A stretch of DNA of 64,000 nt from Octopus vulgaris (Eukaryota): positions 51,398,001-51,462,000 of the forward strand of contig OX597828.1 in assembly GCA_951406725.2 (NCBI GenBank). The letters run 5' to 3'. The position numbers were made by a program, and so were the translations under genes. This document shows, one piece after another, positions 3,599 through 64,000 of this stretch. Below the pieces are notes generated by a model. That model was not told the DNA's origin. It searched no databases and saw only the letters and a list, made by a program, of their open reading frames with translations. Within the stretch, counting starts at the first letter, position 1. Each line of letters starts with the position of its first letter.

Positions 3599-3651
<53 letters not shown>

Positions 3652-3655
<4 letters not shown>

Positions 3656-3920
3656 AAAACGGTAAGATAACAAAAGAAAGAAAGAGACCTCAATATTATG
3701 TAAATAGAGGAAATTTATCTATACAATATGTTACATTACTCGGTAGTCAAGATAAAACTCTGAGTTTCAGATGCCGAAGTGGAAATCCACAACACCATCT
3801 CATCGGTTATCTGGCTATTTGGTTTTCAAATAGCCAGATAACCGATGAGATGGTGTTGTGGATTTCCACTTCGGCATCTGAAACTCAGAGTTTTATCTTG
3901 ACTACCGAGTAATGTAACAT

Positions 3921-3927
<7 letters not shown>
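3652..3927 (-). mobile_element. TA-embedded insert with perfect ~100-bp fold-back and HHR-like motif (Penelope-like pseudo-LTR fragment)
   Basis: Flanked by (TA)n on both sides. 3721-3821 is the reverse complement of 3827-3927. Each arm holds CCGATGA-stem-GAAA-CTC...GAG-TA. Confidence 0.65.
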
Positions 3928-3961
<34 letters not shown>

Positions 3962-4033
3962 GTATACATGTAAGTATGTATTTATACGTATGCATAAATG
4001 CATATAATATTTATTAGTATATATTATGTTATG

Positions 4034-4066
<33 letters not shown>

Positions 4067-4806: not shown

Positions 4807-5466
4807 TATATTATATATATATATGCAAAAATAAGAAAGAAAGAGAGAGAGAGAGAGAGAGGGGGACACACATGCATATATATACATTCCAAAATGTAAC
4901 CACATCTGAATCGTTGGCGGTTTTTTGCTCCGTCATCCTTTTCTATTGGACTTACCTCCGATTCTGAAATAAAGCATTGCTCGAAACGTAAAACCGCATT
5001 TCTTTCCTTCTTTGAGCGCCTGCAAATACTTTACATGTACCGAGTCCTCTTGTTGTTGTTTTTGCGTTTGATCTTAGAGGAGATAGTGTTTCAAATAAAC
5101 AAATAAAGCTGCTCAGTTTAGATATGCAAATAATACATATATGTACTGATGTACGTAGTGAGAAAAGAAAAAAGAAGTTTTTCAGACTGAATATTCAGGT
5201 TTAAATATACAAATATGTATGTATTAACAGAGTAATCTTACACAGAAAATTAGACAGGAGAGTGTAAGGTACTATACTTAAACCAAGCAGTTTCACCTGT
5301 TTATTTACATCATTAGCTCCATTTCTGAGATCGGGGATTTCGCTTATAGACAGTTTTCACCGCGATGTCTTGGTTCTCGCTATACACTTAAGTGTGAGTG
5401 AAAGTCCAAACCATTTAAGCGCTACTGCTTTCTATACTGAGCATCTCTAGATATCTGTTATATATG

Positions 5467-5534: not shown

Positions 5535-5739
5535 AAAATGTGACCTCGTGTGTACCGTTCGCGATTTTTTCCTCTGTCTTCCCTTCTCTGGATCTTTCCT
5601 TCTCCTATGTTTCCGACGAAGAGCTCCGCTCGAAACGTTAAACCCTCCTTCTTTCCTTCTTTCCTGAGCGTCCAATAATACTATATTTGTTTCACGTCCT
5701 CGCGTTGTTGTGTTTTTTTGTGCTTTCTTGTTTGGATTA

Positions 5740-5743
<4 letters not shown>
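5535..5743 (+). mobile_element. Repeat family ending in (TA)n with a variant HHR-like core
   Basis: Close reverse-complement copy at 63011-63200. Contains CCGACGA-A-GAGC-TCC-GCTC-GAAACGTT...AGCGTC. 3' end TTGGATTAACT abuts (TA)n. Confidence 0.7.
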
Positions 5744-5790
<47 letters not shown>

Positions 5791-5816
5791 ATTTTATCCA
5801 GTCTCTTCCCTTGATA

Positions 5817-6398: not shown

Positions 6399-6511
6399 AT
6401 ATACATATAAATATATACATATATACATACAGAAACACATATATATATATATGTGTGTCTGTGTGTGTATATTTATATCGATCGATTATATATAATTGTA
6501 TGTATATATAT

Positions 6512-6825
6512 TACTCTTTTACTTGTTTCAGTTATTTGATTGCGGCCATGCTGGAGCACCACCTTTAGTCGTGCAAGCAAATAGACCCCAGTGCTTATTC
6601 TTTGTAAGCCTAGTACTTATTCTATCGGGTTCTTTTGACGAACCGCTAAGTTACGGGGACGTAAAGAGGCCAGTATCGGTTGTCAAGCGATGGTGGAGGG
6701 ACAAACACAGACACACAAAGATATACACACATACATATATACATATATACGACGGGCTTCTTTCAGTTTCCGTCTATCAAATCTGCCCACAAGTCATTGG
6801 TCGGCACGAGCCTATTGTAGAAGAC
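6512..6825 (-). mobile_element. tRNA-derived SINE family C, 5'-truncated
   Basis: Shares TTGTTTCAGT..TTGA.TGCGGCCATGCTGGAGCACC and GACGGGCTTCTTTCAGTTTCCGTCTA with the copies at 19075 and 50637. Confidence 0.85.
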
Positions 6826-7371
6826 AAAACAATTAAAACGTGTGGCTTATTAGGAATTAGAACTTAAATCCGAAATAAATAGAAGTCGCAAAAGTGATAA
6901 AAGGTACTGACTAGCACCTCTTTTGTTAAAAATATAAGTTAAAACAATAGAAGAGGCACAAAATTAATGACTGACAAAGGGAGTTAAGTCTGCAGCGTAC
7001 ATAGTCGGATTATGGATTTTTTAAGTTGACCATCTTACTCCTCATGAGCGATTCTTAACACCTAGCATTAAATTCATCTACCTCTGCCAGTCTTATAACA
7101 AAAGCCTTTTGAAACGTGTTGATTTTCTAAACGGTAAAAGTGTAAACAGCAAATTTAAAACGGTCGCTTCTCGGAATTTTCTTGCTGCAAACCGTGTAGA
7201 GCGTCTACATGCATTTGAACATACACAGTACGGAATCACAGTTAAAGCCTTTGAATCGTTAACTGAGGGGTCCCAAGTCGTGAGGCTGGTGGGTGCTTGT
7301 CAAAATAGGCCAAAAGAAATATAGTGAAAACCGAATGCTTTCCATTATTCCAGATGTGACAAAAGCAAAAT

Positions 7372-9289: not shown

Positions 9290-10350
9290 CTTATGCAATG
9301 TTTGACCACCTCCTGTACCTACACCTTAGCAACATCATGGCATCTGATATAGTCTTTTAAACCAGACAATGTTCTGAAAAGACACCCATACAGATTGCAC
9401 ATCCGATTTGGGCCACCAAGAGCTGCAGATAAGTTCTGATCTTTGTTGATCTTAACATGTCTTTGGAGGCCTCCGTTGGATTTGAAAACCTCTACACTTT
9501 AGTTCGCCTTTCTACTCGATCCGAAGCAAGTGTTCCTATGTCTTCTGGATCCAATCCAAATGACTTCATTGTAGTCCGTATGCCGTCCTTAAACTTTATT
9601 TTAGGTTTACGCCGATAGCATTTCCCCTCTGCAAGCTCACTATAAAATAACTGTTTCGGCATGCGTTCATCCGCCATTCAAACCATATGGACACATCACC
9701 TCATTTGGTTCCTCAAAATCATAACTTTAACTGGCGTGGTGCTTGCAGATGCAAGGAGATCTGTGTCTGGAGTAAAAGAACTCCATCTAATGTTTAAAAT
9801 GCGATGAAGGCATTTTTGGTGGAATTGTTATAATAAACAAAAATGCCTTTCATAACAAGTCCATGTTTCACAAGAGAACAACAGTGATGGTAAGACAAAT
9901 GATTTATAAAGAGCCAGCTTTGTATTATTATTTATATGTCGCTGGCACCAAACGTGTGACTCCAAGCGAACAAATGCTTTTATTGCACTTTGACTTCGCT
10001 GATGTATTTCTATATCATTTTGTACAAAGCTTCCAAGGTAGATGGACGAATCGACAACCTCAAGTAACTTACCCTTATCAAAAATTTTAACGAGGTTACA
10101 AACAGCACTACATGCAGGTTGATGCATTACAACTGTTTTTTTTTTCAAGTTGATGGTCAAGCCAAAATCATCACAAGCTGAGTCAAATGCAAATACAAGA
10201 TATTGCAGACCTGTTTCAGAATGACTGACATGATTGCAATCGTCAGCGTATAAAATGTCCCTGATGAGTAAAGCACGAAACCTTCGGTCTCAACTTCAGT
10301 CTTGTCAGATTAAAAACATTCCCTGTTGTTCGATATTTGTAAGGAATACT
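9290..10350 (-). mobile_element. RTE-clade LINE reverse transcriptase 3' fragment (pseudogene)
   Basis: Minus strand reads LIRDILYADDC (~10235-10268, RT YADD motif), LTINLKKTVVMHQP, VLPSLLFSCETWT and MADERMPKQLFYSEL, with stops and frameshifts. Confidence 0.9.
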
Positions 10351-13620: not shown

Positions 13621-14149
<529 letters not shown>

Positions 14150-17997: not shown

Positions 17998-18343
17998 GTA
18001 TCATTATTATTAGAATTATTAGGGAATATTACTTCCAAGTACACAGGAAAAAGACATTCAGATTAGATGTACTAAAATGATCATCTCTCAATGTTTAATT
18101 CGTATATGTAAAAGTAATTTTAGAGACAGAACCACCTTCAAGTAGTTTTGGCATTTATACATTTAGGCAGGTTTAAAGGGGTGGTGGTGGGGGACTTTTT
18201 TGGGGTAGACATGGCGCAAACTATCATTCTTAGGGGAGTGGTCAAAGGAATCGGTGTTAAAGTAGATAAAAGAATAAATAAAAGAATAAAAGAATAAATA
18301 GAAAAATAGAGTTTTAGGTAAATAAGGAGACTCTCACTTATAC

Positions 18344-18430
<87 letters not shown>

Positions 18431-18661
18431 CACCCATATACACATGTACATATGTACCCATATACATGTATCTACGTACACGCCCATACCCATACTCATA
18501 CATACACTTATATATGTCTACACACATATATATATATAAAAGGGGATATACACCCCCATACACACACGCTCCCATATCCATATATATATATATACATACA
18601 CATATATATACACACACCCATATACACATATATATACATACATACACATACATACCTATAC

Positions 18662-18696
<35 letters not shown>

Positions 18697-18796
18697 CACA
18701 CACACAATTATATATACACACACACATACATATGCATATACATGCGTGCATGTATATGCATATGTATGTGTGTGTGTATATATAATTGTGTGTGTG

Positions 18797-18827
<31 letters not shown>

Positions 18828-19074
18828 GTATAGGTATGTATGTGTATGTATGTATATATATGTGCATATGGGTGTGTGTATATATATGTGTATGTATATA
18901 TATATATATGGATATGGGAGCGTGTGTGTATGGGGGTGTATATCCCCTTTATATATATATATATGTTTGTAGACATATATAAGTGTATGTATGAGTATGG
19001 GTATGGGCGTGTACGTAGATACATGTATATGGGTACATATGTACATGTGTATATGGGTGTATGTGTGTATGTAT

Positions 19075-19483
19075 ACTCTTTTTACTCTTTTACTCTTTTA
19101 CTTGTTTCAGTCATTTGACTGCGGCCATGCTGGAGCACCACCTTTAATCGAGCAAATCGACACCGGGACTTATTCTTTTGTAAGCCCAGTACTTATTCTA
19201 TCGGTCTCTTTTGCCGAACCGCTAAGTAACAGGGAGATAAACACGCCAGCATCGGTTGTCAAGCAATGCTAGGGGGACAAACACAGACATACAAACACAC
19301 ACACGCATATATATACATATATACGACGGGCTTCTTTCAGTTTCCGTCTACCAAATCCACTCACAAGGCTTTGGTCAGCCCGAGGCTATAGTAGAAGACA
19401 TTTGCCCAAGGTGCCACGCAGTGGACTGAACCCGGAACCATGTGGTTGGTAAACAAGCTACTTACCACACAGCCACTCCTGCG

Positions 19484-19486
<3 letters not shown>
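19075..19486 (-). mobile_element. Full-length SINE family C
   Basis: Head AGGCGCAGGAGTGGCTGTGTGGTAAG...GGTTCAGTCC; tail (AGAGTAAA)n. Confidence 0.9.
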
Positions 19487-19564
<78 letters not shown>

Positions 19565-19776
19565 GTATAAGTGAGAGTCTCCTTATTTACCTAAAACTCT
19601 TTTTTTCTATTTATTCTTTTATTCTTTTATTTATTCTTTTATCTACTTTACCACCGATTCCTTTGACCACTCCCCTAAGAATGATAGTTTGCGCCATGCC
19701 TACCCCAAAAAGTCCCCCACCACTACCCCTTTAAACCTGCCTAAATGTATAAGTGCCAAAACTACTCTTGTCACCT

Positions 19777-19827
19777 AGCTTCCTGATGATTTCTTTTGAA
19801 TGAAACAGTTCTAGTCCTGTAGAAGCT
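19777..19827 (+). ncRNA. Type I hammerhead ribozyme (best candidate)
   Basis: Stem I AGCTTC/GAAGCT (6 perfect bp); core CTGATGA (19783-19789); stem II TTC-TTTT-GAA; GAAA (19802-19805); stem III ACAG/CTGT; GUA triplet, predicted cut after 19821. Confidence 0.8.
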
Positions 19828-20261
19828 CCTTCTATAAAATAAATTAATTTACTCTGCTATGTATTGAGTACCTTATTTACTGTGGTTAACCCCGACTCAA
19901 CCCGGGACCTACATATATTTATATACCCACATATATATGCATATAGGTATTCATACATTATTCCTACTATATGTGTATGTGCGTATCTGCGTAAGGCTGT
20001 GACCATATATATATACAAACGCATGCACCGACACACGCACATACTCACACGCGCTCACGCACGCACACTCACGGTCATGTGATGGTGTCATTGTGCGTAA
20101 AAATACTTTCGATGAAAATCCTTCCAAAACCAGACGTCTGGGATATCTTCTAAGAATTAAATGTCAGCTTCTATTTGCCATGACAATGCTTATCGTTATA
20201 GCAAACCAAGTGATAATGATCACAATATTAATTGGAAGGAATGTATTTTATTAACGTTAGC

Positions 20262-24157: not shown

Positions 24158-24324
24158 TTCATGTATGTATTTGTATATATATATGTGTGTATATACATAC
24201 ACACATACACATATATATATATATATATGCATTTATATTTGTGTATGTGTGTGTGTGGAGAGAGAGCGAAGCTATTATGCAGATAAACAGTATACATAAA
24301 CAAGTAAAGATTGATTGCCATCAT

Positions 24325-24656
24325 AACATAGCGGTCCTTGTTTATGACGAATGTTGCTGTAATTTAGCCCCAGGAGACATCGTCTCCAGCTGGCTATACG
24401 ACACGATCTGTGGCCTTATATTTTCGAACAAGGGAATCTAGCATCCCCACTCAGCTCAAAACTTTGTCTGTATATCGCGCTTTCCGGGTTAGTTACGTTA
24501 TCGCGATACACATATATTGTTTGTGCTGAGTGGGGGTGCTAGATTCCCTTGTTCGAAAATATAAGGGCAACAGATCGTGACGTATAGCCAGCTGGAGACG
24601 ATGTCTCCTGGGACCAAATTACAGCACCATTCGTCTTAAACAAGGACCGACATGTT
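24325..24656. mobile_element. Long-TIR MITE/foldback element
   Basis: CGGTCCTTGTTTA...CCCCACTCAGC (24332-24455) is near-perfectly complementary to GCTGAGTGGGGG...TAAACAAGGACCG (24525-24649). Confidence 0.7.
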
Positions 24657-24691
24657 GTGTTGGCACTCCATATATATACATATATATATAC

Positions 24692-24747
<56 letters not shown>

Positions 24748-25326
24748 AGTATATACACAAGTATATACTACAGCATGCGGTCTACGGTTCACTCTGGGTT
24801 CGGGATCCAACACAGTGAAGGTCCTGAGTGTGAAGTTATATAAAAAAATATACAAAAACGGGCTGAGATTCACCACACCTATTTCAGGCGTTTATTTTTT
24901 TTTCTGTTCATGAACAAAATAATTATTGGGTTGGTGCATAATTGTTGCGGCACTTTTTTCAACAAATTTTATTCAGCAAAAACAATAACAATATTTAACA
25001 ATACATAAGAGCTGTAACAGATTATCAGGGTTCCAAGATTATTGCCGAGACCGTAGTTACGGAGCCATTGCCGGTTTCCGACATAGCGTATTTATGACTG
25101 TTAACGGAGACAACAAACGTTAAGGCAAGGCAAACAACTCAAGGCATATACTTTATTATTGGAAACATTCAAAGTCTTACAGCTGTTTCTGCGATATCCC
25201 AGAAACACCTGTAAGACTTAGAAAATTTCAAAAAATAACAACGTAATGCGTTCCCTAAATGAAATGTTTTTATCGTTCGTGTGTATACTTATATTATTAT
25301 CGTTAGTGTGTATACTTATATTTTGT

Positions 25327-45844: not shown

Positions 45845-45893
45845 ATTGTCAGATACCGATGTTTCGTCTTAATTTGGACTCATCAGGGACAAT
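45845..45893 (-). ncRNA. Minimal type I HHR candidate
   Basis: Minus strand ATTGTC-C-CTGATGA-GTC-CAAATTAA-GAC-GAAAC-ATCG-GTA-TCT-GACAAT: canonical core, G-C-closed stem II, 2-bp stem III, GUA, and a 6-bp stem I offset by a small internal loop. Confidence 0.6.
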
Positions 45894-50237: not shown

Positions 50238-50636
50238 GAAGTCTCACTCTTCCGGGCAAAATGCTTAGCAGCATCTCATCTGTCTTGATGCTCTGAGTTC
50301 AAATTCGACTTTACTTTTTTTCATTTCGTAGTCGATAAAATAAGTACCATTGTAGTACTAGGACCGATATAATCAGCCAGCTTAACTGCTCCCCTGACAT
50401 TACTGGTCTCGTGCCAAAATTTGATATTCGTTTAGGTAAGTAAATCTTGTGATATTCTTAGTAGCATACTAGAACGTATGAGTGGTGTATCATATTCAAA
50501 CTCGGTGTCACGTCACGAAGATATACACATGTATAGAAAGAGAGAGAGAAAGAAACGTAGGAAAGTGGGAACTAGAAAGTATGTGAGAAATAGGAAGAAA
50601 GCAGAAATACGGAAACGCATTAAATTTCTTTTTTTT

Positions 50637-51030
50637 TTACTTGTTTCAGTCATTTGACTGCGGCCATGCTGGAGCACCGCCTTTAGTCGAGTAAATCGAC
50701 CCCATGACTTATTCTTTGTAAGCCGAGTACTTATTCTGTCGGTCACTTTTGCCGAATCGCTAGGTTATGGGGACGTAAACACACCAGCATCGGTTGTCAA
50801 GCGATGTTGGGGGGGGGGAACACAGACACACAAACACACACACAAATATATATATACATATATATATATATATACGACGGGCTTCTTTCAGTTTCTGTCT
50901 AATAAATCCACTCACAGGGCTTTAGTTGGCCCGAGGCTGTAGTAGAAGACACTTGCCCAAGGTGTCACGCAGTGGGACTGAACCCGGAACCATGTTGTTG
51001 GTATGCCAGCTAATTACCACACAGCCACTC
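50637..51030 (-). mobile_element. Full-length SINE family C
   Basis: High similarity to 19075-19486. Confidence 0.9.
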
Positions 51031-62770: not shown

Positions 62771-62962
62771 TATATGTAGGTCCCGGGTTGAGTCGGGGTT
62801 AACCACAGTAAATAAGGTACTCAATACATGGCAGAGTAAATTAATTTATTTTATAGAAGGAGCTTCTACAGGACTAGAACTGTTTCATTCAAATGAAATC
62901 ATCAGATGATTTCATTTGAATGAAACAGTTCTAGTCCTGTAGAAGCTCCTTCTATAAAATAA

Positions 62963-62964
<2 letters not shown>
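62771..62964 (-). mobile_element. 5'-truncated copy of the 19777 HHR element with a perfect 60-bp fold-back
   Basis: 62771-62905 is the reverse complement of 19783-19915. 62844-62903 pairs perfectly with 62905-62964. (TA)n on both sides. Confidence 0.8.
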
Positions 62965-63010
<46 letters not shown>

Positions 63011-63015
<5 letters not shown>

Positions 63016-63200
63016 ATCCAAACAAGAAAACACAGAAAAAAAGAAAAAAAGAGAGAAAAAACACAGCAACGCAGGACGTGGAACAATTAAAGTATTATTG
63101 ACGCTCAGGAAAGAAGGGAAGGAAGGTTTAACGTTTCGAGCGGAGCTCTTCGTCGGAAACAAGGAGAAGGAAAGATCCCAAGGAGGGAAGACAGAGGAGA
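63011..63200 (-). mobile_element. Second copy of the 5535-5743 family
   Basis: AGTTAATCCAAACAAG...AACGTTTCGAGCGGAGCTCTTCGTCGGAAAC; abuts (TA)n. Confidence 0.75.
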
Positions 63201-64000
63201 CAATATTTGAGCTGGTGGTGCTTAAGAGATCACATGTTGAAAAGAACAGAATTTGGAGGTAGTTGAAAAATGGTTTTATAATGCAAGAGAGTTCCCAAAA
63301 AAGGGAATGCCTGTGTGTGTGTGTGTGTGTGTGTGCAAGATGACAAGTGTGTTTGTGCGTGCGTGTGTGTGCGTGTGTGTATTTTTGGTGAATAGAGGTA
63401 ATGACAAAGCCAGCTGTGGTGATGACTACTACCTGTTTGTGTCAAGCTAGGTCAAAGACAGGTAAAAAAACATCATATGTGTGTGTTGTTTGTAGTGTGT
63501 GTGTGTGTGTGCATGTATGTGTTCGTGTGTGTATGCGTAGAGTGTGGGTGTGTGGCGTAACCCTAGTACATGTGTGCTTGTACGTGCGTGTGTGTGTGTG
63601 TAGGGGGATGTATATGTGGGTTCATTTGTGTGAGAGTGCGTGTATGTGTGCGTTTGTATGTGTTTGTGTGTATGTGTGCGTGCGCGGATAGGTGTATATT
63701 GTGTATGTATATCTGTCGGTGTGTATGTGAGTTTGTGTGTGTTTGTACGCGTGTATGTGTGTGTGAGTGTATAGTATATATATATATGTAAATGTGTGTG
63801 TGTGTGCGTGTGTGTGTACGTGCGTGCGAGTGAATGTATGTATATATGTGTGCGTGTGTGTACAATGTAGGGGCTTATATGTGTGTTTATATGTGTGTGT
63901 GTATGTATGTGTGTATGTGTATGTATGTATATATATGCGTGTGTGTATGTATGTATGTATGTGTGTAGTGTCTGTGTGTTTGTGTACGTTTGTATATGTG

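Follow-up and report, generated by a model that had tools for sequence, protein, structure and literature searches.

The 64,000-nt stretch of Octopus vulgaris DNA that was analysed here (assembly GCA_951406725.2, contig OX597828.1, positions 51,398,001 to 51,462,000; hereafter 'the window') contains a 51-nt type I hammerhead ribozyme that sits in the pseudo-LTR (pLTR) of a Hydra-clade Penelope-like element (PLE), and the 5' ends of copies of that element are piled up at the first base of the ribozyme. Our preferred reading, which we regard as probable, is that this hammerhead makes up the initial 51 nt of a capped transcript starting 29 nt after a TATA box, that it is a predicted weak cutter whose best activity would come from dimers formed through stem III, and that the uncut RNA is the likely template for insertion. 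The kind of ribozyme and its U·U closing pair were already known; what is new is the accumulation of copy starts at the first base of the hammerhead, which likely marks the start of the transcript. Thousands of young copies constitute a genomic record in which the insertion templates retain the ribozyme in full, stop at its first base and, in a sample of 100 copies, never stop at the cut.

Structure and detection of the hammerhead

Base-by-base reading of the hammerhead (19777..19827, plus strand; hereafter 'copy 1') places a 6-bp stem I at 19777-82/19822-27, the core at 19783-89, a 3-bp stem II flanked by U10.1 (19790) and U11.1 (19801), G12-A14 at 19802-04, and a 4-bp stem III at 19805-08/19817-20 with an 8-nt near-palindromic loop; the GUA site predicts a cut after A19821. 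C3-A9, G12-A14, A15.1-U16.1, H17 and an open stem I are all present, while the usual (but not obligatory) G10.1-C11.1 pair is replaced by U·U. The first-pass annotation had described a 51-nt type I hammerhead with perfect stems I and III, an intact core and a GUA site, and this description was confirmed base for base, as was the closure of stem II by U-U at 19790/19801. The letters themselves, the comparison of a descriptor with shuffled sequence, and per-position conservation across 72 of 100 sampled copies all identify copy 1 as a type I hammerhead with an intact core, for which cleavage is predicted.

A strict type I descriptor matched once in the window; of 100 shuffles, 3 held one match, an average of 0.03 per shuffle. 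Single-strand folding of 19777-19827 was no better than that of shuffles (z = 0.04): the hammerhead fold lies 0.3 kcal/mol above the minimum, with a probability of 0.04, and the folding program prefers a competing register in which stem II is paired with G12-A14, a consequence of the U-U closure. An Rfam search returned no hammerhead among 9 matches at E<=10, and a search with the whole window returned none among the matches listed (150 of 325); in both searches the listed matches were microsatellite-driven miRNA ones only.

The host element

The 356 nt around the hammerhead returned 1,084 candidates in the 2.8-Gb genome, and the 40 that were scored displayed 95-100% identity. Exact matches genome-wide numbered 7,735 for the core, a count that includes both arms of palindromes, and 3,900 for the tail, with none for the reversed controls. 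An upstream walk over 18 loci led to a near-full copy (L033) in which hammerheads at 5408 and 9748, 4,340 nt apart, surround RT/EN frames and a microsatellite-rich 3' UTR. A further full copy (L083) carries an open 713-aa ORF that starts 183 nt after stem I, and in both copies the ORF follows directly after the tail. The 713-aa protein displays RWR, DKT, YRDD, CxCx5C and GIY-YIG-type motifs, as judged by eye, and has 1,116 homologues at E<=1e-20, mostly at ~40% identity. Pfam and PDB searches yielded no RT or EN match for this protein (Pfam gave just one sub-threshold match, VtrA_C, and PDB none); PF00078 and PF01541 are present on a few of its homologues.

The element shares with the Hydra clade a single-ORF RT with a C-terminal GIY-YIG-type EN (motifs again assigned by eye), DKT in place of DKG, the CxCx5C linker, insertion at (TA)n, a hammerhead in the pLTR, and an inverted arm with a one-sided tail. 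The position of RWK is occupied by RWR in this protein and by RWK in 20 of 22 aligned homologues; no CxxC lies between the two EN motifs, a reading made without a reference alignment for the CCHH motif, which the Hydra EN lacks. The unit length of ~4.3 kb (4,340 nt in L033) exceeds the length of generally <3 kb seen in Hydra elements, a tendency that is not diagnostic, and is attributable here to the microsatellite-rich 3' UTR. DKT, CxCx5C, RWR and (TA)n insertion together indicate, on the basis of motifs, that the element fits the Hydra clade. Assignment to the non-LTR retrozymes, which the accessible text of a 2026 preprint defines as tandem head-to-tail non-coding units each with a hammerhead, was rejected: the copies described here are dispersed, and stand head-to-head or flank an ORF.

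Within the window, copy 1 lies in a 5'-truncated sense arm (18747..19915, plus strand), delineated by BLAST against L033 and consisting of the microsatellite-rich 3' UTR and the pLTR, with a SINE-like insert inside. An inverted arm of the same insertion (18141..18745, minus strand) stands head-to-head with it and, by sequence comparison, ends 11 nt short of the hammerhead. The secondary insertion (19077..19485, minus strand) is repeated at 6511-6826 and 50627-51030 and is missing from the matching part of other copies; it is a putative tRNA-like SINE, both the label and the strand being provisional. Downstream of the hammerhead, a one-sided tail of ~70 nt with the 3' end of the element (19845..19915, plus strand) runs into (TA)n; 55 of the 63 inverted arms stop at 19841-19848, leaving the tail on one side only, and (TA)n follows in 30 loci.

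A pile-up of copy starts at the first base of stem I

The 5' ends of copies were mapped at the first 100 loci of a single contig (C1) that match a 3' anchor exactly. Twenty-five of them begin with the first base of stem I (19777), as compared to 2 in the 12 nt upstream (19765-76); a further 26 start at or upstream of 19764, a class that includes alignment breaks in low-complexity DNA. Within the hammerhead, 18 start at 19778-83, 16 at 19784-800 and 5 at 19801-19, and none start at the cut site (19820-24); the remaining 8 start at 19825-67, one of them at 19826. An adjacent inverted arm accompanies 63 of the 100 copies; in 17 cases this arm begins at 19777, and in 4 cases further upstream.

A subfamily mark is common to both arms in 32 of 33 palindromes, and the wall at 19777 is seen again in separate subfamilies, which together argue that the pile-up does not descend from one amplified stub. 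At roughly half of the 25 junctions at 19777, microhomology makes the true start ambiguous over as many as 4 nt. Genome-wide, the number of matches drops across the wall from 5,683 to 1,522, a ratio that overstates the wall because some subfamilies carry other bases upstream; the 100-copy sample was relied upon for that reason.

A second Hydra-type family in the same genome displays no wall at its hammerhead, where 1 of 30 copies starts. In that family (L121, L311-L340, for example C1:22954484), which has an ORF of ~840 aa and 1,780 pattern matches, the long stem II of the hammerhead is closed by A·C or carries a bulged A. The 5' ends of its copies are scattered, and several of them lie past a TATA-like stretch and ~130-150 nt ahead of stem I.

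Copy 2 and palindromic stubs

The first-pass annotation had also reported a second copy of the hammerhead at 62860-62905 (minus strand). The variant stem II loop that it quoted is present there, but the copy is not a complete hammerhead. Sequence comparison resolves it into a long arm (62772..62905, minus strand) that extends from core to tail and lacks the 5' strand of stem I, and an inverted short arm (62905..62964, plus strand) equivalent to 19785-19844. Together these arms create a 121-nt palindrome (62844-62964) between (TA)n runs, with a predicted 60-bp hairpin of -92.4 kcal/mol (z -22.4). The element's own inverted copy stands where the 5' strand of stem I should be, and copy 2 is thus unable to form the ribozyme in cis. 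Near-perfect hairpins of 60-70 bp like this one are found at many places in the genome, and might yield double-stranded RNA if transcribed.

A likely transcription start at the hammerhead

The position of a TATA box (19748..19753, plus strand) lies at -29 from A19777; the family sequence is TATAAA, and the copy in the window has G as its last base. TATAAA is found at -29 in 72 of 80 run-through arms, a figure that is partly circular (the filter for such arms held the motif, though not its spacing, and the sets of loci overlap). At position 19753 nearly all of the contig depth from four other runs is A, so the promoter of this particular copy may be weakened by its G. The putative +1 is A19777 itself, the first base of stem I, with a pyrimidine before it. 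Among 14 junctions whose preceding base has no template in the other arm, classed by hand after four rows were dropped (both arms of L147, L185, and L310, a duplicate), 10 have a G before A19777 (P=3e-4 at 25% G), although some of the extra G's may stem from scrambled pieces of the element; extra G's at junctions have been attributed to the cap (PMC3287187). The pile-up of starts at 19777, the TATA box at -29 and the extra G combine to suggest that the ribozyme likely corresponds to the first 51 nt of a capped transcript.

The pile-up might also arise by self-priming or fold-back at a short palindrome that the 5' strand of stem I contains, with the hammerhead lying inside the transcript. This explanation, which we consider unlikely, draws on approximately 10 of the 25 junctions that are centred exactly on that 4-nt palindrome, and on the account of Arkhipova (2013; PMC3846280, accessible text), in which junction palindromes result from self-priming, possibly on an antisense template. 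The same 4-nt palindrome, however, is found in the 3' strand of stem I, where none of 100 copies starts (19820-24) and where hybrid junctions number just 29 genome-wide; copies that lack an adjacent inverted arm (L227, L230, L280 and one L170 arm) start at 19777 as well, and the TATA spacing and the extra G would be left unexplained. Those 29 hybrid matches, which lie at the cut site, were considered separately as a sign of in vivo cleavage and are not supportive of it.

Two further explanations involve cleavage or splicing of the RNA. Efficient cleavage, by the monomer or by a stem II dimer, would generate the 5' end (or the circle) that is retrotransposed; it would be aided by a 4-bp stem III, longer than in most animal PLE hammerheads, and by a U-U pair that is the best-tolerated mismatch (PMC3088659, accessible text), and the cDNAs of cleaved RNA, while short, would still be caught by the 3' anchor. 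We judge it quite improbable, given that no copy in the sample of 100 starts at the cut site and one starts at 19826, that pairing through stem II gives duplexes which are either weak or tie up the core, and that the anole PLE used mainly uncleaved RNA as template (PMC11167929, accessible text). Splicing, with AG at 19777-78 as a 3' splice site and the wall marking spliced RNA, appears more improbable again. A pyrimidine-rich stretch ending in YAG precedes the site in nearly all upstream variants, and there is a precedent in the Penelope element of D. virilis, whose intron ends at helix I (Cervera 2014; PMC4209133, accessible text), yet the junctions share no exon sequence upstream, the starts include A19777 itself, and no GT-AG joint was found in the contigs of four runs, which by their nature cannot show absence.

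If transcription does start at A19777, as we prefer, Pol II would place the hammerhead at the head of the transcript, and the element's enzyme would open (TA)n and prime reverse transcription from both strands, with synthesis starting internally at two sites, ~19915 and ~19844. Each cDNA would then run off the capped 5' end of the RNA, and two short cDNAs would be joined head to head, often via the 4-nt palindrome with which stem I begins. Copy 2 would represent such a stub, clipped by a few bases, and copy 1 would derive from a longer cDNA that crossed the promoter. Uncut RNA would likely be the template for insertions, including the abundant head-to-head stubs. Cleavage would remove a capped piece of 45 nt, and we propose for that reason that it acts on translation or stability rather than on the making of insertion templates. 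Viral 5' UTRs offer a lead, though no more than that: type I hammerheads located there can bring about cap-independent translation (PMC13725137, accessible text).

A more far-reaching version can be offered tentatively, as a possibility against which we would on balance wager: that the capped mRNA of this PLE family opens directly with the 51-nt hammerhead; that most genomic copies are twin run-off (strong-stop-like) cDNAs which record the cap; that the ribozyme is a weak, dimer-gated decapping switch, with uncut RNA being copied and cut RNA passing to decay or to cap-independent translation; and that the U·U pair, together with a slip-prone stem II, tunes it down across the Hydra clade. The genomic record makes two propositions directly testable: an origin of head-to-head PLE stubs as paired run-off cDNAs made on capped sense RNA, and an effect of cleavage on the cap.

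Predicted dimer pairing

The near-palindromic stem II of the second copy had been proposed to favour dimers through stem II rather than stem III. Self-duplex energies disfavour this for both copies, with -12.8 kcal/mol for stem III against -2.0 and -6.7 kcal/mol for stem II of copies 1 and 2, respectively. The best cofold of copy 1 is an intermolecular stem III (-25.2 kcal/mol, versus -7.3 per monomer), so that its predicted dimers pair through stem III and not stem II, in agreement with the published stem III dimer model for PLE hammerheads (PMC4209133, PMC6765202; accessible text). In that predicted dimer stem II is slipped onto G12-A14, an inactive register. A natural variant, found in 7 arms, extends the loop III palindrome and strengthens the self-duplex to -15.2 kcal/mol. 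The proposal holds in one respect: for a full hammerhead of the subfamily of copy 2 (L192), the best predicted dimer does form through the stem II region, but it buries G12-A14 and would be inactive.

The U·U closing pair

The U·U closure, called unusual in the first-pass annotation, proved to be ordinary for the clade. U10.1·U11.1 is fixed in this PLE family (seen in all 98 arms that were readable among the 100 sampled copies), and in the contigs of four runs filed under organism codes other than this one neither position has a variant at the listing threshold of >=5%. By our own count of the accessible File S2 of Craig 2021 (PMC8557442), the pair is displayed by 14 of 25 Hydra-clade families, or 13 of 24 distinct rows once a duplicate is removed, and the natural U10.1-U11.1 variant was reported by Perreault 2011 (PMC3088659, accessible text) as the best-tolerated mispair; the U-U pair can therefore be considered already published. 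The ribozyme as a whole, its closing pair counted in, is likewise unremarkable within the clade. Across 72 copies, subfamilies differ within the hammerhead only at N7 and in loop II, which points to selection on the ribozyme; the spacer upstream of it varies freely between subfamilies.

Comparison with known systems

The elements of the Hydra clade described by Craig 2021 (PMC8557442) share with the octopus element a C-terminal EN, DKT, CxCx5C, (TA)n insertion, a canonical 3' hammerhead and, in 14 of 25 listed families, U10.1·U11.1. The octopus element differs from them in its ~4.3-kb unit, in RWR for RWK, in a loop III of 8 nt (1-3 nt in their table), and in a hammerhead distinct from that of the listed Hydra-1_oBim; the accessible text of that study contained no comment on the U-U pair or on a start site at stem I. 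The dimeric hammerheads of Cervera and de la Peña 2014 (PMC4209133, accessible text) are likewise type I, located in pLTRs, palindromic in the stem III region and of predicted low activity, but three of their features are missing here: a highly conserved G10.1-C11.1, a base that bulges out after A9, and a long helix II. Perreault 2011 (PMC3088659) described the same U10.1-U11.1 mismatch, and no link to PLEs was found in the accessible part of that paper.

A mechanistic parallel is the anole PAc Poseidon element (Frangieh 2024; PMC11167929), for which two internal RT start sites that define a tail, extension of both strands and the use of uncleaved RNA were demonstrated in vitro. That element has a tail not exceeding a few tens of nt and an ORF that begins within the hammerhead, and the accessible text, which describes the role of hammerheads in PLEs as unclear, does not describe run-off at a start site. 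The Penelope elements of Adineta vaga (PMC3846280) display head-to-head arms, junction palindromes, a one-sided tail and a putative TATA and Inr in the pLTR, and the proposed cause was self-priming with antisense RNA as template; neither a cap signature nor a constant position of the junction was found in the accessible text. The Penelope element of D. virilis, with its TATA-less promoter and an intron before the hammerhead, counts against the arrangement proposed here. The literature covered, from which subscription journals fall outside, yielded no report of a PLE start site at stem I of a hammerhead.

Other repeats and hammerhead-like cores

The window contains additional sequences of related appearance. 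Two copies of another repeat (5564-5797, plus strand, and 62954-63204, minus strand) have a minimal hammerhead-like core with U4C, and one of them abuts copy 2 across a (TA)n run; a similar repeat elsewhere (L014) has a canonical core. Hammerhead cores with G10.1-C11.1 and a short stem III are found at 10254-10300 (plus strand) and 45850-45893 (minus strand), where stem I is mismatched beside the core, and these may represent decayed hammerheads or ones with a different wiring. Long inverted repeats occur as well, in some cases with (TA)n flanks, at 3601-4052, 13671-13878, 24310-24671 and 25153-25238, and are possibly head-to-head stubs of other element families; Rfam miRNA matches at 3781-3866, below the gathering score, fall within the first of them. 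Elsewhere in the genome, a very abundant young PLE-like family (L051-L080; G000:C8:16631009-16633199) returned 11,337 candidates at 96-99% identity.
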